64,000 nt of DNA, taken from the IMG/VR virus record IMGVR_UViG_3300028394_000068. One strand, given 5' to 3'. Each line of letters begins with the position of its first letter. The stretch's first letter is position 1. The notes below the pieces were generated by a model. It searched no databases, was not told the origin of the DNA, and was given only the letters and a program-made list of their open reading frames with translations. A program made the position numbers and the translations under genes. Of this stretch, positions 24,640 through 56,855 are shown piece by piece. Source of the DNA: an uncultured virus (IMG/VR IMGVR_UViG_3300028394_000068) (lineage: Duplodnaviria > Heunggongvirae > Uroviricota > Caudoviricetes).

Positions 24640-27600
24640 TTATTTGTTATGAGTTAATACATTATTCGCAAAATATAAGTTACTATTACTGACATCAATA
24701 TCGTAAACTGTTGTTGGTTCTGTAATTGTAACTAATAATGTAATTTCAAATTCGGTGTTATCCATATCTAATAATACATCACCAACGTTTAATTCAGATG
24801 TTGTTCTAATATACCACACACCATTTTGTTTAACAACGTGGTTATGTGAATCAGTCGCAATTAATCTACCATTATTAATGTCTATGACAGAATTAACAAT
24901 ATATCTATTAAAGTTAATAACTGTTGATGTTGAATCAACATAATTCAATGTATCACTACTCCAAGAGTACCATTCGTCCGATGGTAAAGGCATTCCTGAA
25001 ACATCAAGAGATTTAAGTACATCCTCAACTTGAATGTCTTGTATTAATTTAGTTGACCCATCTGATAATGTTATTATTGTATCGGCAACAAGACAACTAC
25101 CACAACTTACACAAGCTCCAACCCAACTAGTACCATTCCATTGTCTTTTATTTGGGGGGGAAGTAGTGTTAAAATCTGCGTACCATCCAGAGGCCATTGA
25201 ACCACCTAAACAACCTGTACCATCTGAACTATAAATTACTGTTGACAAACATATATCAGCATTGTCAGTACACACGTTTGTGAATGCACCTAATATACAA
25301 CCCACCGTGAAAGTTGTTTTATAACTCCACCCAACAATAGAACCTAAACAACAATTGTACGCAGAGACATCAATAGTTCCCGGGTCACCAGAAGTTCTTG
25401 TAACCGTGTTTTCTCGTGCACAAACATCTTGTGGGGTTCCTCCCTCAACAAATACTGTCTGAGTACCACCTGTACAATTAGTGTATTGGAAAGTAGTTCC
25501 ACCTATAGATGGGTCCGGTGGTGGTGGTGTATCACTAGTTAATGTATAACATACACAAACTACTGCGGGTGTTGTTGGTGTTACTGTAGGAGTATTACTC
25601 GGTGTGTTAGTTAATGTTATTGTCGGTGTAACAGTTTTTGTTGGTGTGTTACTTGGCGTGTTAGTTAATGTTATAGTAGGTGTTGCAGTTTTTGTTGGTG
25701 TTATTGTTGGAGTATTACTCGGTGTATTAGTTAATGTTATAGTAGGCGTAACAGTTGGTGTTGCCGTTTTTGTAGGAGTATTACTTGGAGAATTAGTTAA
25801 TGTTATAGTAGGTGTAACAGTTGGTGTTGCCGTTTTTGTCGGAGTTATTGTTGGAGTTATTGTAGGTGTTATTGTAGGTGTAACAGTTGGAGTCACAGTT
25901 CTTGTTGGTGTAATACTCGGAGTAACACTTGGAGTATTTGTCGGAGTATTACTTGGGGTGTTTGTTAATGTTATGGTAGGTGTAACTGTTGGCGTTATTG
26001 TAGGTGTGACAGTTGGAGTCACAGTTCTTGTTGGTGTAATACTCGGAGTATTACTTGGTGTATTTGTTGGCGTAGTAGTTAACGTTATTGTAGGCGTAAT
26101 CGTTGGGGTTGGAGTTATAGTTGGTGTAACCGTACTTGTTGGTGTTTGTGAAAGTAATGGTGGTGGACAAGGGTCTTCAAATGTACATTCAGCACAACTA
26201 ATAGATGTTCCAAAACTTATTATATTATATTGACTGGTAAATGATGAACCACTTACAGCGGTCACACAACCACTGAATCCATCTGTTGTGATATAATATG
26301 ATTGACCTATAGTAATTGTAGTCACAAAACCACCAACTTTATAAATATTAAGTGAATTACAACAATCTTGGAAATAATTGATATCCGGCGGTAATGATGA
26401 CGGTGTATTTGTTGGTGTGTTACTTGGCGTATTTGTTGGAGTAGTGGTTAATGTAATAGTCGGTGTAATAGTTGGTGTTGGAGTTAAAGTTGATGTCGCT
26501 GTTATACTAGGTGTAACTGTTGGGGTATTTGTTGGTGTGGGGGTTGGACCAGCAATTTCTGTTACACAAACATTATCAATATAGATTGTGTTAATAATCC
26601 CCGGACAACCATCTACCGCCCCAAATCCAAAAAATGTACCTGTTCCACAAACAAGATTAATATCGTGATATGTTACTCCGGTATCACTAATTGGTGAAGA
26701 AATAGTGTTACCTGCACTAACTTGGACATATCCGTATTCAGTGCAAGAAGAGTTGTTATATAGTTTAAATTTAATATTATAAGTGGCCCCTTCAGTTAAT
26801 ATATCTTGATATAAAAAGTTTCCTTCGGATTCTCCAATAAAATTAGCACTACCCCCATAATTAGAACTCCACACCCAATTAGACCCAAAAAGTTGTGACC
26901 ATCCATTAAGATTATTATTAAAATCACCGTTGATTACTAAATTACCATCACAAGTTATTGGTGTTACGGTAGGAGTTATTGTTGGTGTTACTGTTGTGGT
27001 TGGTGTAGGTGTAGGTGTTGGACAAATTCCTAATGTTGATGAAATTATTATAAATTGAGGATATGATTCCTCAACCCAAGGGTATGTTACATCACTTAAC
27101 GGATAATTTCCGGGATTACTATTAGAACAAAAGAAATGGTAAACATCGTCACCTAAAATCTCAGTATAGTTCCATTTACTTGATGAAGTATTCCACCAAA
27201 CAAACCCAACAGGTGTTAAACAATCATTTAATAATATTTCATAATAAAATTTACCATTATAAATTCCCGTTTTACCTATAGTACAACTCCATTCAAAACC
27301 TATAGCTTCCGTTATAACCGTAAAACACATTTCACTTGGTAAATTTGTTGGTGTTGGGGTTACGGTTTGTGTAGGAGTATTTGTAGGAGTTACGGTTTGT
27401 GTAGGAGTATTTGTCGGAGTAACTGTTTGGGTCGGAGTAATACTTGGTGTCGGTGTTGGTGTTATAAATAAAATACCATTAAAATCACAGAAAGGAGCCG
27501 GAACAGGACCTTTTATTTCTATAGGTCTAAAGTATTCCAATGGAGATTTTTTTCGTTCAAAACCAGGTTTTATAATTTTTACATTATAAATTCCCTGACC

Positions 27601-27663
27601 ATCAACAACTAGTCTTGACCCAGCAAAAATATTACCCGATTTTTTTCTATCTACAAATCCCAT
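24640..27663 (-). CDS. Virion surface protein with long Thr-Pro repeats, CBM-like module and C-terminal Hint domain
   Basis: NLVINGDFN...GW module; [10 protein letters not shown]...VYDIDV...[11 protein letters not shown] Hint at 24640-25095. Confidence 0.75.
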
Positions 27664-38255: not shown

Positions 38256-39962
38256 TTAAAATTTTAATTTAACACCACCCTGAATAGTCATCGGGTCAAT
38301 ATTACTTTTAGTTAAGGTAAACCCAATATTTTTTAAGTTAACATCAAATGTACTGATACGTTTTGGTTCATAAGTTTGAATGTTAAATGTGGTAAACTTA
38401 AATGGTGACTCCGGTGTTGATAATTGTTTAACCAAAGTATTCATATCCAAAGTAACTCCCGGGTTTTTTGATTTATATTCACCTAACTTATTTTGAAGAT
38501 ACATCAATGGTTTTTTTGTGTTGAATATTGTTGGGTCAGTCTTTGATATTGTTGAAATAAAATTATTAACTTCATTACCCGTTGTTTGTTCAGAAATAAC
38601 TTTTCTTCTCTTTATATTTTCAAACAATTCAGGTGAAACTAAAAAATTATTAAATTCTTCTTCAGTATAACTTCTTTCTTCCAACCCACCTTCTTTTTTA
38701 TACACCTGAACAATTATTTTGTTTGTTGCTGGGTCAATTTTTCTAATAAAAAATTCTCTATCTGATTTAGTTTTGTATCTATTATTAAATTTAAACTGTT
38801 TAGTTATTTTATCGTATATATTAGAGTATTCATAAACATCAATAAAATCCTCAGAGTCCTCCATTTTTTCTAATATTTTATCCAATTGGTCTTCAACAAC
38901 TCTATTAAATGATTCATCATCAAAATCGGTACATTCAATATCCCATCTATTTTCATCCCAACCTCCAAGATTACTATCTCTATGTCCAATATCTTTAAGA
39001 ACATCCATTAAACCTAATGTTTTATCTTTAACTGTGTTATATAACGATAATAATATACCTACCGTTGTATAATAGTTATGAAAACAATCTTGTCTAACAA
39101 TCCCATATTTATTGAAGTAGTCACAAACATCCCCTTCAACCCATTCTTTAGCACCTTTACTTCTACAGACATTCTGTTCATCAACCCAATCACTAGTTAT
39201 GTAATCAATTTCATTGGAGAACATATCTTCAACTTTTTGACAAGCTTCTTCTTTTTCACTATCCTCTTCTAAATTAGCCGCGGATGGAAGAACAAGTCTA
39301 ATTATTTGTTTAAACTTGATAAGATTTTCATCCGAAAACTGATATATCAAATATCCCTCATTCCATTCATTATATCCGTGGTCATAATCAACAAAGGTAT
39401 AACTATCGTAATAAGAATATAGTGAGTTAGCAAAATCAACATCGTACTCCTCAAGGTCAAATAATTTTAAATAATCCTCCATTTCATCAAAACGAAGTTT
39501 AACCATACTTTTTATTGGATTATTTTCGTTATATCTGAATCCATAAATAAGGTCATCAGCCCTATCTATTTGATTTTTTGTAACTTTTTCACCGTTCTTA
39601 ACCGCTAATAATAATTTATATACATCTGATTGCCCAACAATATTATCAACAACTGATTTAACATCATCCGGTAAATCTGATTCAAACTCAAATCTACTTA
39701 ATCCTCTATGTTTTTGAGCCTCACTACCATAATATTCTATTTTTTTATCTTGTTCTTTATGGATAATTGATGTTTGGATTGGTTCCTTAGTTTTATCTAT
39801 AATAAAATAAGTATCCCCATCTCTAAATTGATTCCAACTACCTTTAAATTTTTCCGGAGCGTAATACACAAAGGCATCATAGTCCAATGGGTCTACAACC
39901 AACCAATCGTCATTGTCTAATAATATGTTTTTCATTCCGTGAAAGCTCTTTGTGCCCGGCAT
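38256..39962 (-). CDS. Hypothetical acidic protein
   Basis: 568-aa ORF; no confident family. Confidence 0.6.
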   Translation of the reverse strand: MPGTKSFHGMKNILLDNDDWLVVDPLDYDAFVYYAPEKFKGSWNQFRDGDTYFIIDKTKEPIQTSIIHKEQDKKIEYYGSEAQKHRGLSRFEFESDLPDDVKSVVDNIVGQSDVYKLLLAVKNGEKVTKNQIDRADDLIYGFRYNENNPIKSMVKLRFDEMEDYLKLFDLEEYDVDFANSLYSYYDSYTFVDYDHGYNEWNEGYLIYQFSDENLIKFKQIIRLVLPSAANLEEDSEKEEACQKVEDMFSNEIDYITSDWVDEQNVCRSKGAKEWVEGDVCDYFNKYGIVRQDCFHNYYTTVGILLSLYNTVKDKTLGLMDVLKDIGHRDSNLGGWDENRWDIECTDFDDESFNRVVEDQLDKILEKMEDSEDFIDVYEYSNIYDKITKQFKFNNRYKTKSDREFFIRKIDPATNKIIVQVYKKEGGLEERSYTEEEFNNFLVSPELFENIKRRKVISEQTTGNEVNNFISTISKTDPTIFNTKKPLMYLQNKLGEYKSKNPGVTLDMNTLVKQLSTPESPFKFTTFNIQTYEPKRISTFDVNLKNIGFTLTKSNIDPMTIQGGVKLKF

Positions 39963-39994
39963 TGATATTTATTTTAATAATAAATATAATTTTA

Positions 39995-40025
39995 TTTGGA
40001 TTTATCCAAAAATGTATTATCTTTG
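39995..40025 (+). promoter_or_regulatory. Bacteroidota sigma70-type promoter for tmRNA
   Basis: TTTG-N19-TATCTTTG. Confidence 0.7.
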
Positions 40026-40039
40026 TGGTATCAAAATAT

Positions 40040-40436
40040 GGGAGTGACACGGAATTGACTATTCGTAATAGTTATTCGGGGCACGTAGTGAGATGTTCTC
40101 TATCACTTAAATCTATGGGTACAACAATTTAGACGGAAACGTTTTAAACAAAATGGCTCTAGTAGGTCTTGTACGTCAAGACGAGCTTGTGAACGTAGCG
40201 TAAGCACACTCACATTGGGGTCGGTGGACATATAACCTAGCAACAGAAGTCCCTACAAAGGTGTGGTACCTATCCGAAAAGGTACAAGTGGAGGATTAGT
40301 TCTCAGTAAACCGAACCACTCTAAAAATAAGGGAATTGTGAAATTTTGGATTGTTAGCTTAAACAATATCCTAAACGTGTAGTCCTTAATAGGTAATACA
40401 AGTAACACCGGAGTTCGAGTCTCCGCACTTCCACCA
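40040..40436 (+). ncRNA. ssrA: tmRNA (one-piece)
   Basis: 5' GGGAGTG pairs with 3' CACTTCC-ACCA with G3:U70; GGAATTGAC D-like loop; CGGAG-TTCGAGT-CTCCG T-arm; tag frame 40135-40203; smpB nearby. Confidence 0.93.
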
Positions 40437-40438
40437 AA

Positions 40439-40469
40439 AGAAAAACCCATCATTACGATGGGTTTTTTT
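40439..40469 (+). terminator. Terminator after tmRNA (bidirectional)
   Basis: AAAAACCCATC-ATTAC-GATGGGTTTTTTT. Confidence 0.75.
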
Positions 40470-40493
40470 GTTATCAGTTCAAATGTTTATTTT

Positions 40494-40853
40494 TTAATCT
40501 TGTAATAAATCCTTTGTTACCGGATTTAATTTAGTTACTAATTTATCTAATCTTGAATCAATAGTTCTATATACGTCATCAAGACGTTTGTGTGTTTCCT
40601 CAACTCTAGAGTTTATATATCTATTACTATCAGTAAATAAATCGTCAGTTCTTCTAATCTCACCATCTATACGACGATGTAGTTCCTCACTTACTCTGTT
40701 TATATCATTATAGATATGTCCTTGTGATTGTTCCATACTGAAACATTTATTTTTTAATCTGTTAATTTGTTTGTACATCATAACCATAACCCCAACTCCC
40801 AGTGCCCCGAGAACCAAAACTATACCCATAATGAACGATGTTAAATCTACCAT
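40494..40853 (-). CDS. Membrane-anchored coiled-coil hypothetical protein
   Basis: N-terminal TM helix then heptad-like repeats. Confidence 0.6.
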   Translation of the reverse strand: MVDLTSFIMGIVLVLGALGVGVMVMMYKQINRLKNKCFSMEQSQGHIYNDINRVSEELHRRIDGEIRRTDDLFTDSNRYINSRVEETHKRLDDVYRTIDSRLDKLVTKLNPVTKDLLQD

Positions 40854-40913
40854 AATTTCTTTTTTTTATTTGTTTATTATTGAACTGATAATTAAATATA
40901 ATAAAAAAAGAGA

Positions 40914-41351
40914 CTATTTCAAGTCTCTTTTCATATCTCTTTCAATATCCCGAGATTTAATACTATCTCGTTTATCGTGGAGTTTTTTCCCTTTGGCAAG
41001 AGCAATCTCCATTTTAATCAATCCGGTATCGTTTATGAAGACACGATAAGGAATAATGGTTGTCCCGTTGATTAACTCACGTTCCAACTTATTAAGTTCT
41101 TTTTTCTTGGCTAATAGTTTTCTATCCTTAACGGTCTCGTGGAATGACCCATAACCATAATCAGAGATGTTCATCCCCTTTATAAACAACTCACCTTCGT
41201 TGAAATAACAATACCCTTCAGATATGGAGACCTTTCCCTGACGGATGGACTTCACCTCTGAACCAACTAGTTTGATTCCCACAATTAGGGTTTCTAAAAA
41301 TGAATACTCAAACTTGGCTTTCTTATTGACTATGTTAATTGATTTTTTCAT
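40914..41351 (-). CDS. smpB: SsrA-binding protein SmpB
   Basis: NKKAKFEY, GIKLVGSEVKSIR, RKLL, AKGKKLHDKR. Confidence 0.95.
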   Translation of the reverse strand: MKKSINIVNKKAKFEYSFLETLIVGIKLVGSEVKSIRQGKVSISEGYCYFNEGELFIKGMNISDYGYGSFHETVKDRKLLAKKKELNKLERELINGTTIIPYRVFINDTGLIKMEIALAKGKKLHDKRDSIKSRDIERDMKRDLK

Positions 41352-41355
41352 ACGA

Positions 41356-41386
41356 CAAAGATAATATAAAAATTGGTATAAACAAA
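41356..41386 (-). promoter_or_regulatory. Bacteroidota sigma70-type promoter for smpB
   Basis: TTTG-N19-TATCTTTG on minus strand. Confidence 0.65.
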
Positions 41387-41415
41387 AAACCCACTAAAAA
41401 AGTGGGTTCATAATC

Positions 41416-41634
41416 TTATTTGTTTTTAAATTTTTCTAATAATTGTTGTATAGTTAAAACTCTAGTTGTGTATTTATTGTCTTGTATTCTGCACCAATTT
41501 GCAAATTCCATCTGTTGTTTCTCAAACATTTCTTTAGCATTTTCAAATACTGCTTCATTATACTCAATATCTTCATTTGATATTGGGTTTGGAAGTAGGT
41601 TGTTGTATAACCATTCTACTGCTGATTGTTCCAT
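41416..41634 (-). CDS. Small hypothetical protein (MEQSAVEWL...)
   Basis: Starts at the ATG of one repeat copy, ends at the TAA of the next. Confidence 0.6.
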   Translation of the reverse strand: MEQSAVEWLYNNLLPNPISNEDIEYNEAVFENAKEMFEKQQMEFANWCRIQDNKYTTRVLTIQQLLEKFKNK

Positions 41635-41653
41635 AATCTTATTTTTGTCTATG

Positions 41654-41911
41654 TTATTCATATTTCAAAATATCTACGTAATAATTATTGGAGTTATAAC
41701 CATATTTAATTCTACTTTGTTCCGCATCTTCTTTAGTTTTGAAAGGAGATAAGATTACATTATGTTCTTTACTCCCGTGTGCTGGTGTTTTTTCATACAC
41801 CGCATAAAGTGTTTTTTGTTTATTATCCCCTATTAATCCTATTAAGACACCTTTAGGTATACCCAATTCATCTTTATTAATTGTATTAACTAATTTAGGT
41901 TCTTTTTCCAT
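41654..41911 (-). CDS. Small hypothetical protein
   Basis: Starts at the repeat ATG (MEKEPK). Confidence 0.55.
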   Translation of the reverse strand: MEKEPKLVNTINKDELGIPKGVLIGLIGDNKQKTLYAVYEKTPAHGSKEHNVILSPFKTKEDAEQSRIKYGYNSNNYYVDILKYE

Positions 41912-41915
41912 AATC

Positions 41916-42101
41916 TTATTTGTTAGGTTCTTGTTTAACATCTTCATAATGATTAAATACTTCTGATATTATTCTTTCTTCAATTCCTTCAATTTTTAAC
42001 GCTAACTCAATAGCATTTCTAATTTGATACGCATAATGAAAATCATTTAAGTCAATTGTAACTTTAGGGTGGTTCTCATTTCTTTTTATTACTATTTTCA
42101 T
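41916..42101 (-). CDS. Small hypothetical protein
   Basis: Runs from repeat ATG to repeat TAA. Confidence 0.55.
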   Translation of the reverse strand: MKIVIKRNENHPKVTIDLNDFHYAYQIRNAIELALKIEGIEERIISEVFNHYEDVKQEPNK

Positions 42102-42178
42102 AATCTTATTTGTTTATAAAACAAAGATAAACAAAAAATCCCAATAAATAAACTATTGGGATTAAAAATATTATTATC

Positions 42179-42526
42179 TTAATTTGTATAGTCCCCAACT
42201 ATTTCACTATCATTAAACCCATCTATATCACCGCTATAAATGGTTCTTATTTTTAAGTTGTAACGTTCCTTTAACCATTTCTTTGTTAATTCTTGAATTT
42301 CCGGAGAATCCATACTTAACATATATTTTAAAAATGACGAAATTTCATAATCAATAAAAACATCCTTATCTTTTTTATTATATTCAAGAATCACCTTTTT
42401 ATTTTTTAAGTAATAAATACAACAAGGATATTTTTCCGTTTTAAATGATTTCAAATCACCATAGTTATCGTTCAACCAATTAATGGCAAGTCTCTCTAAT
42501 CTACTTTCTGTTATTATAATTTTCAT
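42179..42526 (-). CDS. Hypothetical protein with MKIIITES leader
   Basis: 115 aa; ITE motif shared with other putative head-internal proteins. Confidence 0.55.
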   Translation of the reverse strand: MKIIITESRLERLAINWLNDNYGDLKSFKTEKYPCCIYYLKNKKVILEYNKKDKDVFIDYEISSFLKYMLSMDSPEIQELTKKWLKERYNLKIRTIYSGDIDGFNDSEIVGDYTN

Positions 42527-42615
42527 ACCAATAAATATATGAAAAAAATAAATAATTTTTTTCTAATAATTATGACTTTTTATACTTTTTGAGATATTTA
42601 TAATAAAGAGATATT

Positions 42616-42768
42616 ATGAACCCAAGAAAAAAAGAAGAAGATAAAAAAGTAAAGTTTGGAATCTGTGTTGACCCGGTTATTTACAAAAAAATGGAAGATG
42701 AGATGATTAACAAATCTCGTCTGATTGAAACACTATTAAAAGAACATTATGGAAAAAAAAGTTTGTAG
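42616..42768 (+). CDS. Small ribbon-helix-helix-like DNA-binding protein (absent from the ORF track)
   Basis: MNPRKKEEDKKVKFGICVDPVIYKKMEDEMINKSRLIETLLKEHYGKKSL; beta-alpha-alpha pattern; overlaps the HNH start. Confidence 0.55.
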   Translation: MNPRKKEEDKKVKFGICVDPVIYKKMEDEMINKSRLIETLLKEHYGKKSL

Positions 42769-43378
42769 TAAATGTAAAGAAGAAAAAGAACTTTGTGAGT
42801 TTCAAAAACGGAAAGATTCTAATGATGGTCTGCGAAGTGAATGTAAAAGTTGTATTAAGTTTTACCACAAAGTTTGGAGAACTCAAAATCCAAATAAATA
42901 TCCTGTTTATAACAAACAATTTAAGATAAATAATCCTGAAATACATAAAACAATAATTAAAAAATATAAAGAAAATAACAAAGAAAAAATTGAAAATAAC
43001 AATCGTAAGTGGAGACAGAACAATAAGGAATATATTAATAATTATATGAAAAATAAACGAAAAAATGATTCACAATATCATTTAATAACACTAGTAAGAT
43101 GTCGTCTGAATGAATTTTTACGAATTAGAAAAATAACCAAAAGAAATAACACTATAAATATTGTGGGTTGTTCACCGGAATTTCTTAAGATTCACATTGA
43201 GAATCAATTTACTGAAGGTATGTCTTGGGAATTATTAGGTCAACATATTCATATTGACCATAAAATTCCTTTATCTTCGGCAAAAACTGATGAAGAAATT
43301 TATCAGTTATGTCATTACACAAATTTACAACCACTATGGGCATTTGATAATTTAAGTAAAGGTGATAAAATATTATAA
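42749..43378 (+). CDS. HNH endonuclease-like protein with N-terminal Zn finger
   Basis: CSKC...CKSC; HIDHKIP...CHYTNLQPLWAFDNLSKG. Confidence 0.8.
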   Translation: MEKKVCSKCKEEKELCEFQKRKDSNDGLRSECKSCIKFYHKVWRTQNPNKYPVYNKQFKINNPEIHKTIIKKYKENNKEKIENNNRKWRQNNKEYINNYMKNKRKNDSQYHLITLVRCRLNEFLRIRKITKRNNTINIVGCSPEFLKIHIENQFTEGMSWELLGQHIHIDHKIPLSSAKTDEEIYQLCHYTNLQPLWAFDNLSKGDKIL

Positions 43379-43380
43379 AC

Positions 43381-43414
43381 AAAAAAAGGTGTCACATTAC
43401 TGTAACACCTTTTT
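43381..43414 (-). terminator. Intrinsic terminator of the large ncRNA (also usable by the HNH gene)
   Basis: Minus strand GGTGTTACA-GTAA-TGTGACACC-T7. Confidence 0.8.
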
Positions 43415-44221
43415 GGCTTAATACGATGAGAATACTCGTCTTATTGAGAATCTTTAGAAGTTTTATTGTTTGACTTCTTTTCCACACCCTTTTGGGATGT
43501 AATCCTCATTGCCGATTAGTTAGACTAATCACTCCTTACGATATCATTTACTCTCTCATTATTCAACTCTCTTCAAGCTTGCGACCTGACTCCGGATTCG
43601 ACTCCGTAGAGGTTTTTGGTAAGAATACACATTAACTTGCGGTCTTTGTGTGCTATGGACATCCCATAACTAAGTAGGCAACTTGTCAATGACATCGGGT
43701 AGACATTTTTGCTATGTTTCTTTTAGTTTTTCACCATATTGAAAATAGTAATTGTGTTGTGGATGTGTTCAAGAAGTAGTCTACCATAAGCTTCGTCTCC
43801 TTTTGAGAGACAAAATACTAAACTTCTCGATGAGATATCCCTATCTCCACTTTTCAAGACATCTTCATACCATCACCTTGGTGGGTGATTGATAAGGATG
43901 ATGACAGCACCACCTGTTACTCATCTTACCTTTCGATTTTAAGATACCTATTAAGTTGGAACCCGCAATTATAAAGTCGGATAACTTTACTTCTCACATA
44001 ATCCCTATGGGTTATTTTTTTTGGTGTTCCCACCTCAAACAGACAATCCACATTGCCCATTCAGTTTTCCATTTCCCTACGAAGTTATCCTCGGTACTAC
44101 AGGCTCACTGATATCCCACTTGTGTACTCGAGCTCCCTTTCAGAAGCCGCAGAACCAATAACACTGATGGTTCCACTTTAATCCTCATTTCTGAGTTTAT
44201 TTGATGACTATACACAGCCAA
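43413..44221 (-). ncRNA. Large structured ncRNA (~810 nt), GOLLD-like
   Basis: No ORF of 60 aa or more; visibly GC-richer than flanks; termini pair (TTGGCT/AGCCAA); many GNRA hairpins; own promoter and terminator; size and tRNA-adjacent phage context fit GOLLD. Family identity not confirmed. Confidence 0.7.
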
Positions 44222-44304
44222 TTATCGTTTTTTACTCCACCGAAGTGGGTAAAGGATAATCTAAAATTTCTAAGAACGTCTTGAGGTTTTCCTCATTTGT
44301 TTTA

Positions 44305-44335
44305 CAAAGGTAAGTGATTTTTTTCTAAAGTCAAA
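44305..44335 (-). promoter_or_regulatory. Bacteroidota sigma70-type promoter for the large ncRNA
   Basis: TTTG-N19-TACCTTTG on minus strand. Confidence 0.7.
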
Positions 44336-44357
44336 CACTTTTGTAATTTTTTTTTAA

Positions 44358-44475
44358 TCTGTGATAAGACCTTAAGATTTACTCATTCGTAGGTCACCCA
44401 TTCTATTCTACCTAAAACTCGCACTCCCGTCGGGATAGTCTGCTGTAATAGGGCTATCTGCTATCTTATCACAGA
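44358..44475 (-). ncRNA. Unknown 118-nt structured RNA
   Basis: Perfect 12-bp terminal helix TCTGTGATAAGA/TCTTATCACAGA; internal helices; lies between tRNA-like genes and the large RNA. Confidence 0.5.
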
Positions 44476-44486
44476 ATAAACTATTG

Positions 44487-44576
44487 TGGTATCAGATGGG
44501 TTCGAACCACCGGCACAGAGTCTTTCGTTACTCCTGCTCTACCAAAGGAGATAAATCTCCACTGAGCTATAATACC
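44487..44576 (-). tRNA. Atypical tRNA-like RNA (hairpin inserted in D-loop, 8-nt anticodon loop)
   Basis: GGTATTA/TGATACC acceptor, GCTC/GAGC D-stem, GGTGG-TTCGAAC-CCATC T-arm; loop AACGAAAG. Confidence 0.75.
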
Positions 44577-44585
44577 ATATAAGTT

Positions 44586-44660
44586 AGTGGACGTATGCTC
44601 TACCATCTGAGCTACGGAGTTAAGACCGGAGGGATTTGAATCCTCGACACAACGTCCACC
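44586..44660 (-). ncRNA. Circularly permuted tRNA-like RNA
   Basis: Order is anticodon-stem 3' strand, variable loop, T-arm, looped acceptor stub, D-arm, anticodon-stem 5' strand. Confidence 0.7.
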
Positions 44661-44697
44661 TATATTTTCAATAATTTTAAGAACTTTATTTCTTCTA

Positions 44698-44729
44698 CAA
44701 AGATAATACTTTTATTTTAATCTGTCAAA
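44698..44729 (-). promoter_or_regulatory. Bacteroidota sigma70-type promoter for the tRNA-like cluster
   Basis: TTTG-N20-TATCTTTG on minus strand. Confidence 0.65.
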
Positions 44730-44888
44730 TTATTTTAAAAATAATTCTATTAATTTTATTAAACCAAAACTAAAACACATTCCGGATACAAAATAACTGA
44801 ATGCAGGATTTTTACCATTTTCTTTTTGTGTTTTTGCGGAGAATAGGTTTAATCCCATCAATCCAAATTGTACTAATACTATTGTCAT
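44730..44888 (-). CDS. Small two-TM membrane protein (52 aa, absent from the ORF track)
   Basis: MTIVLVQFGLMGLNLF...FSYFVSGMCFSFGLIKLIELFLK; ATGA-coupled to the upstream ORF. Confidence 0.5.
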   Translation of the reverse strand: MTIVLVQFGLMGLNLFSAKTQKENGKNPAFSYFVSGMCFSFGLIKLIELFLK

Positions 44889-45028
44889 AATTTTTTTTGT
44901 TTTTCTTGTAATTCAGTTAATGCCTCTTTAAGTTCTTTACCCCACGCTTCTTTCCATTGTTCAAAAGTAAATTTTGATTCCGGATGAATCTTCATATAAT
45001 TCTTGTATTGTGTTTCTAATGTTGCCAT
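44885..45028 (-). CDS. Small hypothetical protein (47 aa, absent from the ORF track)
   Basis: MATLETQYKNYMKIHPESKFTFEQWKEAWGKELKEALTELQEKQKKL. Confidence 0.5.
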   Translation of the reverse strand: MATLETQYKNYMKIHPESKFTFEQWKEAWGKELKEALTELQEKQKKL

Positions 45029-45042
45029 ATAATTTAATTTAG

Positions 45043-45144
45043 TAGTCAGGACAGGATTCGAACCTGTTCCGTCTTTGCCATAAAGAGTCGGCCTTACCGT
45101 TACTCAACCTTGGGGAGGTGATACCAACCAATGGTCTCCTGACT
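45043..45144 (-). tRNA. Atypical tRNA-like RNA with expanded multi-hairpin middle
   Basis: AGTCAGG/CCTGACT acceptor; ACAGG-TTCGAAT-CCTGT T-arm; non-canonical anticodon/variable region. Confidence 0.65.
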
Positions 45145-45299
45145 ATGTTTCGCTAATGTTAAAAACTGACTCAATCTTCCTAAAAAACACTAACTTCCTT
45201 CTTACTCTATTATAGGCTCGGCCGTCCTGTTTTAAATATAGTTTTACCTGAAACTTCGGCCGGCTGTTGATTGACCACTCCCACCTACTCAAGTAGTTT

Positions 45300-45554
45300 T
45301 TACATACTCATCATCCAACCCATTCGGTTCTGTGCTTGATACTCAGTATAAGTACATTTTCTCATTGTCTTATAATCCGGTCTCAACTTAACGTGTGTTG
45401 GATATTTCTTCTCGTGCTCTTTGTGTTCTCTCACCACCTTAGCGTAAGCCTCTCTTTTACTTGGAGCCCACACGTCGTTAAATCCACCACCAATCCAATT
45501 AAACAAATAAAGGTATTCACCGTTAACACTTCTATACAATTTTTCTTTAGCCAT
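45300..45554 (-). CDS. Hypothetical protein
   Basis: 84 aa; promoter TTTG-N19-TATCTTTG at 45576-45606. Confidence 0.6.
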   Translation of the reverse strand: MAKEKLYRSVNGEYLYLFNWIGGGFNDVWAPSKREAYAKVVREHKEHEKKYPTHVKLRPDYKTMRKCTYTEYQAQNRMGWMMSM

Positions 45555-45661
45555 AGTTCATCCGTTTTGTGAGTACAAAGATAAGCCTTAAATTCAAACT
45601 GCCAAACTTTTTTTAAAAATTTTTTTATTTTTTTTTATTACTGAAGTGAAGTAAAACAAAT

Positions 45662-45684
45662 AACCCCTCTTCGGAGGGGTTTTG
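45662..45684. terminator. Terminator-like hairpin
   Basis: AACCCCTC-TTCG-GAGGGGTT. Confidence 0.55.
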
Positions 45685-46263
45685 TTATTTTAATAATTTT
45701 TTAATCCTATTTAATTCTTCTTGTAAAACTTTATTTTCCATAACCGGTTTCCCAAGTACCTTATCGACTGCGGTGAATGGGAATAACATAGTTTTTAAAA
45801 ATGTGTCGTGAAATGAACCATCTGTAGGTAACCCTATTTGAGAAGTATCTAAAGAATCTTTTTTCTTTTCTTTTTGTTTCTTTTCTTTTGGTTTTTCAAT
45901 ATTTGAAGTTCCACTATCAATACCTTCAAAAAACGGTTTTAGTCTAACTTTTTGATTACGGTTATCTAAAATTGAATATCTTAAATCTTTATCACCGGCA
46001 ATACCCAAACTACTCCCTTTTCTTAAATTATCACCCCTGTTAACAGTTATTCTATTAACTTCACATATATTAGAGTGGTATACATCGTTTCCAACAATAT
46101 GTTTAATTTTTACATTACCTCCACAATCATTTACATCCACACTTTGTACAACACCATCATATGGTGAACGTACTAAATTACCTTGATGGGTATTTATACT
46201 AATTTCTTTGGATGATAAATCAGATGGTCTACCACCTGAAACTGGTAATTCAAACTTATCCAT
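45685..46263 (-). CDS. M23-peptidase-like protein (metal ligands degenerate)
   Basis: VRSPYDGVV...GGNVKIKH...VNRGDNLRKG..LG fold signature; HxxxD and HxH absent. Confidence 0.6.
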   Translation of the reverse strand: MDKFELPVSGGRPSDLSSKEISINTHQGNLVRSPYDGVVQSVDVNDCGGNVKIKHIVGNDVYHSNICEVNRITVNRGDNLRKGSSLGIAGDKDLRYSILDNRNQKVRLKPFFEGIDSGTSNIEKPKEKKQKEKKKDSLDTSQIGLPTDGSFHDTFLKTMLFPFTAVDKVLGKPVMENKVLQEELNRIKKLLK

Positions 46264-47621: not shown

Positions 47622-48647
47622 TTACAATTTTTTAAATTCCGGTCTGATTAGGTTCCATATGATTTCAGAGTAATCTTTTTTATCCCACATAGCAAACATC
47701 ACAGGATGTAATACTTTTTGTTGTTTTAAGACAAACTCAGCAAATTCTTTTTTTGTTGGTTCAGGGTCAACGTCACCATATTTTCCATAACGGAACCCAT
47801 CGTGAAGTTTTCCAGCTCTTTCAGATATTTGAAAATAACCATATCTTAAATCTCGGACATAGTTTTGAATTTTTTTATAAAATTCATCCGGAACATCTTT
47901 TAATAATTCCAACACATCTTCACCATTTTTCAAATACTCCCAAACTCCGGTTGTAGTGACGTTAGTCATTATTTTATGAAGACGAAGATACTCAACACCT
48001 TTAACTTTGACTCTATCCCCATTGGAGAACTTTACCACGAACCCCTCTTGGTCGTTTTTAACCATTTCTTTCAGTTGTTTGTAGTCATTGATACCATCGT
48101 ATTTTTTAACCACATCAAACCCCCATTGTGACCATATTTCAGAATCCATTTCTTTTCCATTCTTATCAAAAGTTCCCAATAAGACTAGTTTTTCATCATT
48201 ACCATAATCCAAAACAATTCTGTTTTCTGGATAGATGATTTCAAAACAGAAAGTCAGATGTCTGAACATTATATCGGTGTTGTATTTCTGTAAGAGTTCT
48301 CTCGCTTTGATTGCTTGGTCAGAGGTGAATGAACCACGAGTGGCAACCACCCATTGACCTTGATACCAAAATACAATACCCAATGAACCATCCATTTTTT
48401 CATAAACCTCAAAGTTTTCAGTTGGCGTAAATTTTCCTTCTTCTATGTTGAAGAACTTTTGAAATGGTGTTGCAACTATGTCTCCGGTGTTGTCGGTAAC
48501 TAAACCTCTACACATAAGAGTCACCTCATCCCACAGGTTCTCGTACTGAACTTTCTCAGTATAATTCCATATGGTTAATGGAAGTGATGGATGTACTTGT
48601 TTATAAAGTAATCCGTCTTCGTAATATTTGTTTAGTTTTTCTAACAT
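47622..48647 (-). CDS. RNA ligase (T4 Rnl1-like)
   Basis: EKMDGSLG (motif I), FEII, EGFVV, RVKVK. Confidence 0.88.
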   Translation of the reverse strand: MLEKLNKYYEDGLLYKQVHPSLPLTIWNYTEKVQYENLWDEVTLMCRGLVTDNTGDIVATPFQKFFNIEEGKFTPTENFEVYEKMDGSLGIVFWYQGQWVVATRGSFTSDQAIKARELLQKYNTDIMFRHLTFCFEIIYPENRIVLDYGNDEKLVLLGTFDKNGKEMDSEIWSQWGFDVVKKYDGINDYKQLKEMVKNDQEGFVVKFSNGDRVKVKGVEYLRLHKIMTNVTTTGVWEYLKNGEDVLELLKDVPDEFYKKIQNYVRDLRYGYFQISERAGKLHDGFRYGKYGDVDPEPTKKEFAEFVLKQQKVLHPVMFAMWDKKDYSEIIWNLIRPEFKKL

Positions 48648-48648
48648 C

Positions 48649-48978
48649 TTATTCTATTTTTTTCAAATTTTCTTCTAATCTACTTAAGAATGATTCCTCA
48701 CCATCATCACCTGATAATAACCAATCCACTCGTTGAGCGTATTCTTGAGCGATATGAAGAGCTTTAACCGCCTCTTTCATCTTCTCAATAACCTCATCCG
48801 GATATTTATAATGGAATAAATCCTCAGGGTATTTTTTATACCATTCAGGGTCTCTCCAACCTTCTTCCTTTAAATCTTCAGGCGTTTTTTCAACACCATT
48901 CTTCACAATAACCTCTTCTATTTGGTCTGCGATGTAACCAATCTTATATTGGTTGTAATCAAATGCTCCTCCACTCAT
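48649..48978 (-). CDS. Hypothetical protein
   Basis: MSGGAFDY...VDWLLSGDDGEESF. Confidence 0.6.
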   Translation of the reverse strand: MSGGAFDYNQYKIGYIADQIEEVIVKNGVEKTPEDLKEEGWRDPEWYKKYPEDLFHYKYPDEVIEKMKEAVKALHIAQEYAQRVDWLLSGDDGEESFLSRLEENLKKIE

Positions 48979-48980
48979 AA

Positions 48981-49376
48981 TTAAAGTTTTACCTCAAAAC
49001 GATTTTTCATTAATTTTAATTTATCTTCCGGAACCCCGTGTTCATTAATACCATCGTGTCTATTCTCTACAATAAGTGAGTGAACTCTATATCCGTGTTT
49101 TTCAGCTAATTCAAAATAAGGTGTCATTTCCCACTCTTGGGTGAATGTATTTGATACCACAACTTTATGTTCGTATTTCATAAGGAACTCAACCTCTTCT
49201 TGACACCAAGCGTGAGCATCTCTCAATGATGTAACATCAAACTTATAGTTACCATCCCCATCGACAAAATACATATCCGCCTCTTTGTGACAATAATCTT
49301 TATCACCAACTAACATTTTTGCCAATGTTGATTTACCACTTCCTGGTAATCCTCTTAATAAAAATAACTCTTTCAT
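48981..49376 (-). CDS. P-loop kinase (AAA_33, polynucleotide-kinase-like)
   Basis: RGLPGSGKST, EADMYF, VVSNTF, HGVP. Confidence 0.85.
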   Translation of the reverse strand: MKELFLLRGLPGSGKSTLAKMLVGDKDYCHKEADMYFVDGDGNYKFDVTSLRDAHAWCQEEVEFLMKYEHKVVVSNTFTQEWEMTPYFELAEKHGYRVHSLIVENRHDGINEHGVPEDKLKLMKNRFEVKL

Positions 49377-49663
49377 AATTCACATTCTTTTAAATATTTA
49401 ACAATTTTTTCAATACCTTCAACGTCATCAGGATTAATGATGAACTCATCAAACGCTCCGTATCTTGATTGATGTCCAAAAATATATTTCAAACCATAAC
49501 CAACTCTTTGCCAAAATGGTCGTTTAACCAAATGAGTATGGACATAAACCATCGGAAATCTTACACCATCAATATCGTCCTCATCATATAGGACAACCAT
49601 TTGATGTTCCGTGTTATGACAGGAACACACAAATAAATCTTTTTTTGTTTGTTTAATTCTCAT
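49373..49663 (-). CDS. Hypothetical protein
   Basis: CSC...H motif; 96 aa. Confidence 0.55.
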   Translation of the reverse strand: MRIKQTKKDLFVCSCHNTEHQMVVLYDEDDIDGVRFPMVYVHTHLVKRPFWQRVGYGLKYIFGHQSRYGAFDEFIINPDDVEGIEKIVKYLKECEL

Positions 49664-49664
49664 A

Positions 49665-50327
49665 TTACTTTCTTTTTTTACCGTCTTCAGTTATTACCTC
49701 ATCTGTGTGGTGGTCACCATCCATATTTGAACGGATTTCTCTCATCTTCACAATCTTAATCACATTATCCAATTCGTATGGCATAAAAAACATATTACCA
49801 TCAATTCCAACATCCATTCTTCTTCCTTTACCAAATACTTTTTGTTGAGGTAAATGACAGTGTCCGTGTAAGTGAATGTGTCCTTTGTTTAACCCATCCC
49901 AAGAATCTATTGGATAGTGCATTAAAACCAAAGTTTCAAATTTATACATCAATTTTGTGTAGTGATTAACACTTGCAAACAATTCCTGACAATCCTCTCG
50001 GTTGTTTTCAATGTGGTGGTCGTGATTACCTAATATAAGGTGTATCTCTTTACACACAATTCTATCTCTGAAAATTTTTATATTTTCAAATCCACCAAAA
50101 CTCCAATCACCCAAGTGAATCAAAACATCGTCTTGTCCTACAACACTGTTAATGTTATTCACAATCATTTCATTCATCTCACTAATTGAATCAAAATCTC
50201 TGGTTTGTGCGATTGGAATACTCCCATCAGGTAATCTCCACGCGGTCACACCACGACATATATTCTTATGCCCAAAGTGGGTGTCGGAGATTATCCATAC
50301 CTTTCTATCTTTATCTATCTTAATCAT
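49665..50327 (-). CDS. Calcineurin-like metallophosphoesterase
   Basis: SDTHFGH, HLGD, GNHD, HGHCH. Confidence 0.9.
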   Translation of the reverse strand: MIKIDKDRKVWIISDTHFGHKNICRGVTAWRLPDGSIPIAQTRDFDSISEMNEMIVNNINSVVGQDDVLIHLGDWSFGGFENIKIFRDRIVCKEIHLILGNHDHHIENNREDCQELFASVNHYTKLMYKFETLVLMHYPIDSWDGLNKGHIHLHGHCHLPQQKVFGKGRRMDVGIDGNMFFMPYELDNVIKIVKMREIRSNMDGDHHTDEVITEDGKKRK

Positions 50328-50817
50328 ATTGCAAATCTAATTCTTTTTTTCCAAACCAAAAAGGTTTTTCTCTGTTTTTCCAAGATGCCAAACTAATTTT
50401 AGCACCCATATAATAATTTCTGTAAGATTCCACAACAGAATCTACCTTAAACTCATCCGGCATTGCCATCGCCGGAGTAGTAAAACCAATATCCGGAATG
50501 TTTGGTTTATTTATAATACACCAATTAATCACATCAATTGATTTATGTCTTTTACCATACCTGTGGGTATATTCTTTACCCAACTCCAACCCCAACTCAC
50601 ACAAGTACAAATAATTTGATAAACTCTGACGAGCCCACACCGCACAAGGATGATTCTTATGTGACAACTTGTAGGGTACTTGGGGGGTAACTTGGGGGGT
50701 TGTGTGATGAACCGAACATAATAACTGAGCCGTTTCCAAAATCATTTTTACTACGTGTTTATCTACGTGGTATTGAGCCGATAATGTAGGATTCTCATCC
50801 AAGAAAAATATATTCAT
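50320..50817 (-). CDS. Pyrimidine-dimer DNA glycosylase (DenV)-superfamily protein
   Basis: MNIF.LD...DKHVVKMILETAQLL...HKNHPCAVW. Confidence 0.75.
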   Translation of the reverse strand: MNIFFLDENPTLSAQYHVDKHVVKMILETAQLLCSVHHTTPQVTPQVPYKLSHKNHPCAVWARQSLSNYLYLCELGLELGKEYTHRYGKRHKSIDVINWCIINKPNIPDIGFTTPAMAMPDEFKVDSVVESYRNYYMGAKISLASWKNREKPFWFGKKELDLQYD

Positions 50818-51266
50818 TATACGTGTGGTATTTGGACTCTCACACAAGTTTGTGCTTGACCCTCGTTCATATAAAAATTGTTCAAGTATCCCATAATGTT
50901 TGCACTACCAATTGGATTAGCAGAATGAACATATACAATTGGAAATACAAATTTGTCTGCCTTTCTCTCACTTCTACTCATATTGAATCTACCTTCATTT
51001 GTATTGTGAAATAATGCAACCAAAAATTTAGCGGCATCATATCCGGTTTTTTCCTCAATATTATTGTAATCCAAAGTATAATTTGGGGAAACATTGTCAA
51101 AATATTCTTTCATAGCTGTATCGCCCAAATCGTGGTCTAATGATATAATATCAATTTTACCCAACCCAACTTCATTAACTTTACTAACGAATTCATCGTA
51201 ATTTCTCACAACAATCCAATTATCTCCGGTTGGGGTTCTTACGTCATCTAAATAAATTCTACACAT
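50817..51266 (-). CDS. Cyclic-phosphate-processing receiver-domain protein
   Basis: IYLDDVR.P, ISLDHDLG, TGYD, VHSANPIG. Confidence 0.75.
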   Translation of the reverse strand: MCRIYLDDVRTPTGDNWIVVRNYDEFVSKVNEVGLGKIDIISLDHDLGDTAMKEYFDNVSPNYTLDYNNIEEKTGYDAAKFLVALFHNTNEGRFNMSRSERKADKFVFPIVYVHSANPIGSANIMGYLNNFYMNEGQAQTCVRVQIPHV

Positions 51267-51359
51267 AATTTCTATTTTTTTTACAAAGATAATCAAATTT
51301 TTGAAATAAAAAAATGTTTAATTATAAAAAGTAAATATTTATAGTATAAAAACACTTAA

Positions 51360-55083: not shown

Positions 55084-55755
55084 ATGATAACAAAAAGACC
55101 ATATAATACTAGAGGTAACCCTAAAACTGATTGGATTAATTCATACAGGACATTTAGTTTTCCTGGATATTTTGACCCTAAATATAGAAATTTTGGTGAC
55201 CTACAAACAATTAATGACGATAGAGTCCAACCAAATGGTCACGTACCAATACACGAACATAAGAATATGGAAATATTTGGTTATGTGGTAGAAGGTATTT
55301 GTAGGCACACTGATAGTCATGGAAAGGTATTAGATATACCAGCAGGTGCAGTACAAAGAATGAGTACAGGACGAGGAATAAAACACACAGAAGGTAATTC
55401 TTCGGATACACCAAATCGTTATTTACAACTATGGATTAAACCAAACGTGTTTGATACCGAACCAATACACGAATGGCATCAATTTACAAGAGAAAATAAA
55501 TTAAATAAATTTTGTGATATAACTGAAAAATTACCAATTAAACAAGACGCTAAATTATTATCAGGAATATTTACTGAAGATTTTGATTTTGAATTAAAAA
55601 CTAATCGTAAATACTATTTATATGTTGTTTCAGGTGATGCAAATATAAATAATCATTCATTAATTGAGGGAGATGGTTTAAGTTTTATAGATGAAAATAA
55701 AATTGAGATAACAACAAAAAAAGAATCTGAAATAATACTATTTGATTTACAATAA
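55084..55755 (+). CDS. Pirin-family protein (YhhW-like)
   Basis: HEHKNMEI, HTDS.G, VQRMSTGRGIKHTE, LQLWI. Confidence 0.9.
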   Translation: MITKRPYNTRGNPKTDWINSYRTFSFPGYFDPKYRNFGDLQTINDDRVQPNGHVPIHEHKNMEIFGYVVEGICRHTDSHGKVLDIPAGAVQRMSTGRGIKHTEGNSSDTPNRYLQLWIKPNVFDTEPIHEWHQFTRENKLNKFCDITEKLPIKQDAKLLSGIFTEDFDFELKTNRKYYLYVVSGDANINNHSLIEGDGLSFIDENKIEITTKKESEIILFDLQ

Positions 55756-55778: not shown

Positions 55779-56855
55779 ATGATACAAGGAATTAGAATAA
55801 CAAGTACAAATTTATCAGGACTAACGGCAAACGTTACTTTTTATCCCACAACTGGTGGGTCAGAAAATTTAGGATCTGAAGTAATACCATTTAATAATAT
55901 TTCGGTTTATCCTTACGGAACATACGAATTAGACGTTCCATTATATGATAGAATATATGAAATAATTGTACCAGCACCATTAACAGGTCAGAGTGCATAT
56001 ACTCAAACAGTAAGATCGGTTACCGTTGACGGAGGATACCAACCATTCTCAGGAGCGGTATTATCTGAAGTGTGGGGAACATATACAACAGAGTATGTCA
56101 CAAATGAAGGAATACCATCAACTGATATTGTTTTAGCTGAAGGTATTTGTTCTGATGATGTGGATGCGGCATATTTACCTGGAAATATCGGTGGATGGCC
56201 AACTAGCATTAACTCATTTTTAGGACCATTTCAATCAGGTGGATTGGCGGGTTATCCGTTTGTTGGTAGTGTTGGATTTGGAGCATTTGCAAGTCACGTG
56301 GCAACAACTCTTGGTGGAACCTTGTTTGTAACGAGTATGCCACACATTGGTGTTACTGAAGATGGTCGTTCAGGTAGAATGCTGAGAAGGGGTAAAGCAG
56401 ATAGTATAACAGATAATACCTGTGGTGCGGTTGCGGGAGCAATTGACCAAGTTGTTAATCAACTAAGTTCGGCTCCAGATCAAAATAACGCACCTTTTAA
56501 TAATGAAAATTATTCTTTTTGGAAATTGACTGATATTTTATGGCCGTATAAAAATGTATTATCAGGGTTTACAGGTACTTCTGAAGAGATTTATAATAAA
56601 CAAATGATATTTGCTACAGAAACAATTAGGGATTCTGCTTATGATTATATTATTGCAAATTTACCTGCAGCAACAAGTGCTCAAACCACAAATGATGTAT
56701 ATTTTTTAAGTGGTATTTTTATTAATAGTGATGTTAGTTCCGGTACAACACAATTTGAATCATATGTTGTTGTTGATAAAGTTATGAAATATGTGTTTGA
56801 TGACCAGTGGTATGATATAACGGTTGATTATATGGCTGGATTACCTATTGACTAA
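55779..56855 (+). CDS. LCIB-family (beta-type) carbonic anhydrase domain fused to a virion-type N-terminal module
   Basis: ICSDD, GGLAGYPFVGSVGFGAFASH, PHIGV..DG..G...RRG, TCGA. Confidence 0.75.
   Translation: MIQGIRITSTNLSGLTANVTFYPTTGGSENLGSEVIPFNNISVYPYGTYELDVPLYDRIYEIIVPAPLTGQSAYTQTVRSVTVDGGYQPFSGAVLSEVWGTYTTEYVTNEGIPSTDIVLAEGICSDDVDAAYLPGNIGGWPTSINSFLGPFQSGGLAGYPFVGSVGFGAFASHVATTLGGTLFVTSMPHIGVTEDGRSGRMLRRGKADSITDNTCGAVAGAIDQVVNQLSSAPDQNNAPFNNENYSFWKLTDILWPYKNVLSGFTGTSEEIYNKQMIFATETIRDSAYDYIIANLPAATSAQTTNDVYFLSGIFINSDVSSGTTQFESYVVVDKVMKYVFDDQWYDITVDYMAGLPID

Follow-up and report, generated by a model that had tools for sequence, protein, structure and literature searches.

A gene-free stretch on the minus strand of a 64,000-nt DNA from an uncultured virus (IMG/VR record IMGVR_UViG_3300028394_000068; the whole stretch is called the window below) is, with high confidence, the GOLLD gene of a freshwater phage that is T4-like and probably infects a member of Bacteroidota. 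The encoded RNA is a new, ordinary member of the already known GOLLD family. The locus thus adds a well-delimited, expressed copy of GOLLD from a T4-like phage with a probable Bacteroidota host. Its main parts are as follows.

43423–44245, minus: GOLLD RNA gene (Rfam match and end of the RNA-library contigs)
43831–44245, minus: GOLLD 5′ domain, 415 nt (full-length homology, covarying stems, and RNA contig ends)
43423–43830, minus: GOLLD 3′ domain, to which Rfam model RF02032 corresponds
43705–43778, minus: A-rich variable linker between the domains, 74 nt (length and sequence vary across 43 homologues)

Identity of the RNA

The GOLLD model RF02032 matched positions 43830–43423 of the minus strand with 287.9 bits (Rfam cmsearch, E 3.2e-81) over its full length (model positions 1–416 of 416), nearly twice the gathering score of 150 bits. 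RF02032 models only the conserved 3′ half of GOLLD, and the 5′ half has no Rfam model. The whole RNA is 823 nt long (44245–43423); its 5′ domain is separate and less conserved, and its linker is variable, as is typical of GOLLD. The setting is also that of GOLLD: the window carries T4-like genes, a tRNA-like gene lies 265 nt upstream, and the sequence occurs in lake sequencing runs. The T4-like genes encode a Gp23 capsid protein, a Gp20-type portal, a prohead protease, and a T4-type terminase; the capsid protein has 40–44% identity with its counterparts in Flavobacterium phages (40%), a Microcystis phage, and an uncultured 484-kb phage. The initial annotation had seen here an ornate RNA, either GOLLD or a new relative of it. 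The model match, size, lake origin, phage location, and tRNA neighborhood agree in favor of GOLLD, and the alternative of a new relative finds no support, since many other GOLLD loci can be aligned with the RNA in both halves.

The cmsearch suggested in that annotation, with models of GOLLD, ROOL, OLE, RNase P, and group I/II introns, returned GOLLD alone: none of the other models reached its gathering score in the whole 64 kb, and none gave a match at E ≤ 1 within 39500–46000. Besides GOLLD, the families at gathering score in the 64 kb were just tmRNA (40040–40436, plus strand) and one tRNA (44576–44487, minus strand). The GOLLD stretch contains no ORF of 60 or more amino acids; its sole ORF is 51 amino acids long and lies on the plus strand. 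The minimum free energy (MFE) of the 809-nt stretch was −218.4 kcal/mol (z = −4.13), and none of 20 shuffled sequences folded equally well.

Could the RNA belong to a new ornate class that resembles GOLLD only in size and context? The 5′ half, which has no match in the Rfam catalogue, leaves some room for this reading. Against it, the 3′ half covers the complete GOLLD model with a score close to double the cut-off, in all 12 relatives scanned the 5′ half directly adjoins an RF02032 match, and a variable 5′ region of GOLLD is already described in the available part of PMC12286853. A new class is therefore extremely improbable. A self-splicing intron, an RNase P RNA, another catalytic RNA, or a degraded protein gene is equally improbable, since the large size, the structure, and the adjoining tRNA genes, which would suit a catalytic RNA, are set against the missing model matches given above, the lack of any ORF longer than 51 amino acids, stem substitutions that are compensatory and not codon-like, and the two contig joints found in the RNA runs, neither of which spans the element and both of which come from contigs of 90–95% identity.

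The 5′ domain and its relatives

In a blastn search of phage records, two huge uncultured phages, LR756502 (642 kb) and LR745206 (635 kb), aligned with both halves of the RNA at 67–70% identity. RF02032 scored 275–287 bits in these two phages and 277–325 bits in all 10 further relatives scanned. The two huge phages and more than 100 IMG/VR contigs show full-length homology in both domains and share the same stems. A word scan found the invariant 17-mer GAGCTCGAGTANNCAAG of the 5′ half on at least 120 IMG/VR contigs. With a full-length profile built from three sequences, nhmmer gave 122 matches over the 122 loci gathered; among the matches listed, 71 spanned the whole profile, and dropping near-duplicates (>60% shared 12-mers) reduced these to 43. 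Alignment A2 consists of the window and 42 homologues (43 sequences, ~830 nt), with L027, cut at a contig end, left out. A related record of 16.6 kb (G001) was found to be without GOLLD. The following features of the 5′ domain are referred to below.

44220–44205, minus: P1 hairpin (covariation)
44135–44119, minus: invariant 17-mer GAGCTCGAGTACACAAG (homologue comparison)
44051–44046, minus: hairpin loop GTGGAT (fold of homologues)

RNAalifold predicted 188 pairs on A2, and 150 of them showed a compensatory double change in at least one sequence. Given this covariation and the RF02032 matches in all 12 relatives scanned, the 5′ half is not a novelty; judged from the alignments, the GOLLDs of a large lake-phage clade have this 5′ domain in common. 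In these phages, the 5′ half, unmodeled in Rfam, amounts to a separate family, large and with strong covariation.

Hairpins, linker, and long-range pairings

The local hairpins read from the letters in the initial annotation (counted as seven, six of them with coordinates) are all present in the minus-strand sequence, and all lie in covarying stems.

44195–44184, minus: hairpin CTCA-GAAA-TGAG
44147–44132, minus: hairpin GCTTCT-GAAA-GGGAGC
43937–43928, minus: hairpin ATC-GAAA-GGT
43847–43832, minus: hairpin GAGAT-N6-ATCTC
43811–43795, minus: hairpin GTCTCTC-AAAA-GGAGAC
43589–43573, minus: hairpin TCAGGT-CGCAA-GCTTGA

A closing helix between 5′ TTGGCT and 3′ AGCCAA had been proposed along with them. 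The two hexamers are complementary in the window, but the pairing is not conserved among homologues. Shuffles of the 41-nt tail give a 6/6 match by chance in 17% of cases, and even with G–U allowed a 6/6 match was found in only 6 of 43 homologues. Three homologues (L025, L046, and L020) keep the 3′ tail and terminator of the window, yet their 5′ hexamer is the non-complementary TGGGTG. Moreover, TTGGCT is used in the local P1 hairpin, in which TGGC (44220–44217) pairs with GTCA (44208–44205), and the outer pair of this hairpin covaries (GC 19, CG 12, UG 6, and UA 5). On these observations, the closing helix was rejected as a conserved feature.

The linker is closed by a helix of GGTAGAC (43785–43779) with GTCTACC (43704–43698). 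Six of its seven pairs vary in a compensatory manner (e.g. UA 19/CG 18 and GC 19/AU 19), and the seventh is CG in all 43 sequences and never varies. A long-range pairing is predicted between the 5′-domain loop GTGGAT (44051–44046) and ATCCAC at the start of the linker (43764–43759), where 96.1% of the positions are paired across the alignment, against 33–45% in slid controls. Two of its pairs are changed on both sides (12 cells), a level that none of 500 shuffles reached. As a partner of the same ATCCAC, GTGGAA in the 3′ domain was considered and rejected: it is 88% paired, shows no two-sided change, and does no better than shuffles. The 5′-domain loop is hence the preferred partner on covariation grounds. 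Neither this loop-to-linker pairing nor the conserved leader described below was traced in the GOLLD descriptions contained in the available parts of PMC12286853 and PMC12990946, and the two provide added constraints on the GOLLD fold. Two adjacent 3′-domain loops contain self-complementary dinucleotides, CG (UCGA, 43601–43598) and GC (CGCA, 43583–43580). They would suit the symmetric kissing loops of which PMC12286853, in its available part, speaks, with the mapping being an estimate.

Promoter-like site, leader, and terminator

The control elements around the gene are listed here.

44305–44335, minus: Bacteroidetes-type promoter-like site from a pattern scan, TTTG (44335–44332), a 19-nt spacer, and TACCTTTG (44312–44305)
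44246–44300, minus: leader, missing from the RNA contigs (homologue comparison and folds)
44295–44282, minus: leader hairpin TGAGG-AAAA-CCTCA (fold of the window leader)
44277–44268, minus: conserved leader box GTTCTTAGAA (homologue comparison)
43376–43414, minus: intrinsic terminator from a scan, a 14-bp stem (43414–43383) followed by a T run

The promoter-like site follows TTTG–N19–TACCTTTG, which we take to be the Bacteroidetes promoter consensus, and presumably functions as such. The window contains 11 matches to this pattern where 4.8 are expected, a number reached by 2 of 100 shuffles. Of these matches, six are located just upstream of correctly oriented genes, namely those of a ClpB-like ORF, tmRNA, SmpB, GOLLD, a YrlA-like RNA, and ORF 45554. 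In 32 of 43 homologues, TAnnTTTG is present at most 210 nt upstream of GOLLD. The terminator is identical after GOLLD in L025, L046, and L020.

Sequence conservation of the leader extends upstream to 44277. All 43 sequences have the box GTTCTT(T/A)GAA, at a distance of 18–209 nt upstream of the GGC start. Long leaders have the order of box, 7–8 nt, AWTATCC, at least one variable hairpin (often with a UUCG loop), and GATAWT directly before GGC. In the window, ATTATC (44260–44255) is able to pair with GATAAT (44226–44221). RNAalifold on leader alignment A3 found only P1 because the leader inserts do not align, and single-sequence folds were used in its place. Twenty-one of the 43 leaders were folded (the window and 20 of 29 long-leader homologues); 13 short-leader homologues and nine with unusually long or divergent long leaders were left out. 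WTATC pairs with GATAW beside P1 in the MFE structure of 20 of these 21 leaders, and the pairing occurs in the compensatory forms ATTATC/GATAAT, AATATC/GATATT, and GATATC/GATATT. The GATAWT before GGC was also considered as a −10 box and rejected, since a start 6–7 nt downstream would cut the covarying P1 and since GATAW pairs with WTATC.

RNA libraries and the 5′ end

Twenty public runs contained the stretch or part of it, 14 from freshwater or lake DNA and six lake metatranscriptomes. The DNA runs held 72–98% of the sampled words, and the metatranscriptomes held 44–56% of the words of a 1501-nt stretch, 55% of which is GOLLD. Four RNA runs (X15–X18) were mapped onto 43300–44800. A contig of 830 nt in X15 aligned over 811 nt (record positions 2–812) with 43435–44245 with one mismatch, and a 742-nt contig in X16 aligned with 43504–44245 with no mismatch. 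Pieces in X17 reached 44245, and the cover in X18 began at 43425, so that the contigs of the four runs together cover 43425–44245. GOLLD is thus expressed as RNA, as seen in library contigs of 742–830 nt with 99–100% identity, which carry no information on strand or abundance. Over 43300–43401 and 44269–44800, the four runs gave only a trace of cover (in X17), which counts neither for absence nor for a 3′ end.

The contigs of X15, X16, and X17 stop exactly at 44245. In X15 and X17, the letters that follow are AGATCGGAAGAGC..., which we take to be the Illumina adapter. Because the adapter comes directly after 44245, many cDNA inserts ended at this position, which points to a defined 5′ end of the RNA at 44245. 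The boundaries given in the initial annotation (43413..44221) need slight correction: the Rfam match ends at 43423, and the RNA contigs place the 5′ end 24 nt further upstream. The promoter-like site, the terminator, and the defined 5′ end are useful construct limits for structural and functional work.

We favor processing as the origin of the end at 44245, the precursor being a transcript from the host-type promoter upstream. The position is inside a predicted leader hairpin with a covarying stem, on the 5′ side of the UUCG loop, a location that sits uneasily with either a simple start site or a leader stem in the mature RNA. A primary start at 44245 from a phage-specific promoter, with GTTCTTWGAA at −32 to −23 and ATTATCC at −15 to −9, is a less probable explanation that nevertheless deserves consideration. 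Both boxes are conserved with 7–8-nt spacing in the long-leader homologues, and in the window they are at promoter-like distances from 44245. This arrangement is not kept elsewhere, however, as other homologues have a 20–60-nt hairpin inserted between ATTATCC and the GGC start, and in short-leader homologues GTTCTTTGAA is only 18–22 nt from GGC, which would place a fixed-distance start inside P1. The covariation of WTATC and GATAW as an RNA stem and the host-type promoter 60 nt upstream also argue against a primary start and leave processing as the favored origin of the 5′ end.

Short RNA contigs in X15–X18 with 90–95% identity were also found on 43963–44064 of the window, with a word depth of up to 777 on 44005–44038. 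These contigs run on beyond 44005–44038 into unlike sequence. They probably derive from GOLLD RNAs of other phages of the same lakes that share a conserved segment of the 5′ domain.

tRNA-like RNAs upstream of GOLLD

On the same strand, a YrlA-like RNA, an odd tRNA of 91 nt, and a structured element of 127 nt are found upstream of GOLLD.

44568–44672, minus: YrlA-like permuted tRNA mimic (RF02553, 34.7 bits, E 8e-5, below the gathering score of 69)
44486–44576, minus: odd tRNA, 91 nt (Rfam, 38 bits; tRNA-Thr GGT according to ARAGORN)
44352–44478, minus: structured element, 127 nt, with a 13-bp closing stem CUGUGAUAAGAU.../...GUCUUAUCACAG

The YrlA-like RNA has the order of T-arm, closed acceptor-like hairpin, and D-arm within a 9-bp stem (GGUGGACGU/ACGUCCACU), and a promoter pattern precedes it (44729–44698). 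Its score is below the gathering threshold of RF02553, and the stem that would bind Ro60 reads GGACGUUG instead of GNCGAA. RNA 44672–44568 is predicted to work like a tRNA mimic, with membership in YrlA below threshold. In L025 and L020, too, a YrlA-like match precedes GOLLD (40.4 and 30.1 bits, respectively). None of the window ORFs scanned has a TROVE domain; TROVE (Ro60/Rsr) ORFs of 488 amino acids were found in two of four related phage records, LR745206 and a 483-kb IMG/VR contig.

In the odd tRNA, a 14-nt hairpin (GGAGAUUUAUCUCC) is inserted in the D-loop, and the anticodon loop in the Rfam alignment has 8 nt and lacks U33. This tRNA may be non-decoding. L020 and L046 each have a similar tRNA of 90–91 nt close to GOLLD, both scoring 39 bits. 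The 127-nt element, located between the odd tRNA and the GOLLD promoter, has an MFE of −33.6 kcal/mol (z = −3.3), and none of 200 shuffles folded equally well; it gave no Rfam match at E ≤ 1. An RNA of ~100 nt further away (45043–45146, minus strand) has a tRNA-like acceptor stem GUCAGGA/UCCUGAC, a T-arm ACAGG-UUCGAAU-CCUGU, and a long, irregular interior; it was missed by ARAGORN and the Rfam tRNA model.

Comparison with known large RNAs

According to the available part of the cryo-EM study of env-38 GOLLD (Kretsch et al. 2025, PMC12286853), this RNA forms a closed, protein-free 14-mer cage with D7 symmetry, in which the 5′ domains make up the caps, the 3′ domains the rings, and a disordered linker is located inside. 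Compared by size and layout with what that part gives, env-38 and the RNA of the window belong to the same Rfam family, with total lengths of 833 and 823 nt and 5′ domains of 420 and 415 nt, respectively. They have in common a 3′ domain of ~410 nt, a variable linker, neighboring tRNA genes, and an aquatic, phage-associated origin. As described there, env-38 is marine and located downstream of a Met-tRNA, whereas the window belongs to a freshwater T4-like phage and its GOLLD comes after tRNA-like, not canonical tRNA, genes. Unlike env-38 as presented in the same part, the GOLLD of the window has a promoter-like site and a terminator of its own. Among the closer relatives, LR756502 and LR745206 have a tRNA gene directly after GOLLD, where the window has the terminator, and the leader length differs between the window and related loci.

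Morgado et al. in 2020 and Weinberg et al. in 2009 reportedly found GOLLD in Mycobacterium tRNA arrays and in Lactobacillales prophages. As far as the available accounts go, these RNAs share with that of the window the conserved 3′ domain, the tRNA-array context, and carriage by a mobile element or phage. They differ in their 5′ domains, and some have a tRNA in the linker, whereas the 74-nt linker of the window has none. ROOL, as covered in the available part of PMC12286853, is likewise a large ornate RNA of phages and prophages that is encoded near tRNA genes and forms an RNA-only cage. It is unrelated to GOLLD in sequence and fold and assembles into an 8-mer, and the window has no Rfam match to ROOL.

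Genomic neighborhood

The tmRNA and SmpB genes lie 2–3 kb to one side of GOLLD, and RNA-repair genes lie 3–7 kb to the other side.

40040–40436, plus: tmRNA (Rfam, 68 bits, with poor alignment in the middle); a promoter pattern lies 15 nt before it (39995–40025)
40914–41351, minus: SmpB gene (Pfam, E 5e-47), with its own promoter pattern (41386–41356)
47622–48647, minus: T4 Rnl1-type RNA ligase (domain match)
48981–49376, minus: AAA_33 kinase (domain match)
49665–50327, minus: calcineurin-like phosphoesterase (domain match)
50817–51296, minus: cyclic-phosphate-processing receiver domain (domain match)

The run of RNA-repair genes (47622–51296, minus strand) resembles a split Pnkp/Rnl tRNA-repair set. 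A partial tmRNA also adjoins GOLLD in L034. A tRNA accompanies GOLLD in 41 of 52 non-redundant loci and is at most 300 nt away in 20. Linkage to protein genes was counted in 27 non-redundant loci of at least 15 kb each: within 10 kb of GOLLD, SmpB homologues occurred in five, a ClpB-like ORF in seven, and Rnl1 in two. A general linkage of GOLLD to SmpB, Rnl1, the kinase, the phosphatase, the cyclic-phosphate-processing receiver (cREC), and ClpB was rejected, with only 2–7 of the 27 loci having them.

Proposed mechanism and function

Here, we propose a mechanism for the RNA of the window. The minus strand would be transcribed from the Bacteroidetes-type promoter at 44335–44305 or, alternatively, as a longer transcript from 44729 that includes the tRNA-like RNAs upstream. 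A stable RNA of ~820 nt would result, with its 5′ end at or near 44245 and its 3′ end at ~43423 or at the terminator (43414–43376). It would fold into two domains, a 5′ domain (44245–43831) and the universally conserved 3′ domain (43830–43423), with the A-rich linker looped out by the covarying helix. By homology to env-38, such molecules would self-assemble without protein into a closed 14-mer cage with caps from the 5′ domains, rings from the 3′ domains, and linkers pointing inward. Because the RNA shares the two-domain layout and the size of env-38 and matches the full model, cage formation by analogy appears probable.

The function of GOLLD is not known according to the available part of PMC12286853, in which phage tRNAs and ribosomes are among the suggested cargoes. 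The position of GOLLD among tRNA and tRNA-like genes leads us to propose, tentatively, that the cage may act on the translation or tRNA system during lytic growth, a role read from the neighborhood alone. The cage could enclose or protect RNAs of tRNA size, or it could capture host factors that attack such RNAs. This role is only a possibility, since GOLLD generally adjoins tRNA but has no general linkage to the repair and rescue genes; for what GOLLD cages do, the neighborhood serves as a clue and not as a test.

Somewhat less probable still is a true GOLLD that works with protein partners, for example by binding ribosomes or scaffolding proteins, and not as a tRNA-related cage, the neighboring tRNAs merely sharing promoters or processing. 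Ribosome binding by GOLLD in pull-downs, cited in the available part of PMC12286853, would fit such a role, as would the varied neighbors among GOLLD loci and the 11 of 52 non-redundant loci that have no tRNA in the DNA examined. The frequent tRNA adjacency (41 of 52), by contrast, speaks for the tRNA-related role, as do the tRNAs that some GOLLDs contain in their linker, as described in the available parts of PMC12286853 and PMC12990946, and the former also describes a cage that forms without protein in vitro.

A more elaborate version of the tRNA-related role is speculative and improbable. GOLLD would close a phage "RNA operon" in the order of promoter 44729, YrlA-like mimic, 91-nt tRNA-like RNA, 127-nt RNA, and GOLLD, and its cage would store or shield these tRNA look-alikes, which do not decode, or trap host defense enzymes that cut tRNA and are lured by them, as part of a counter-defense island. 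If this were true, the operon, tmRNA/SmpB, and the Rnl1, kinase, and phosphatase genes would form one counter-defense island for the translation apparatus.

Other ORFs of the window

Two ORFs of auxiliary type, one LCIB/C-type β-carbonic-anhydrase-like (E 4e-29) and one pirin/quercetinase-like (E 3e-23), are located at 55779–56855 and 55084–55755 on the plus strand. By the terminase gene, an ORF of 1007 amino acids (24640–27663, minus strand) has at its end a weak match to an intein-splicing domain (E 3e-4, below the cut-off).
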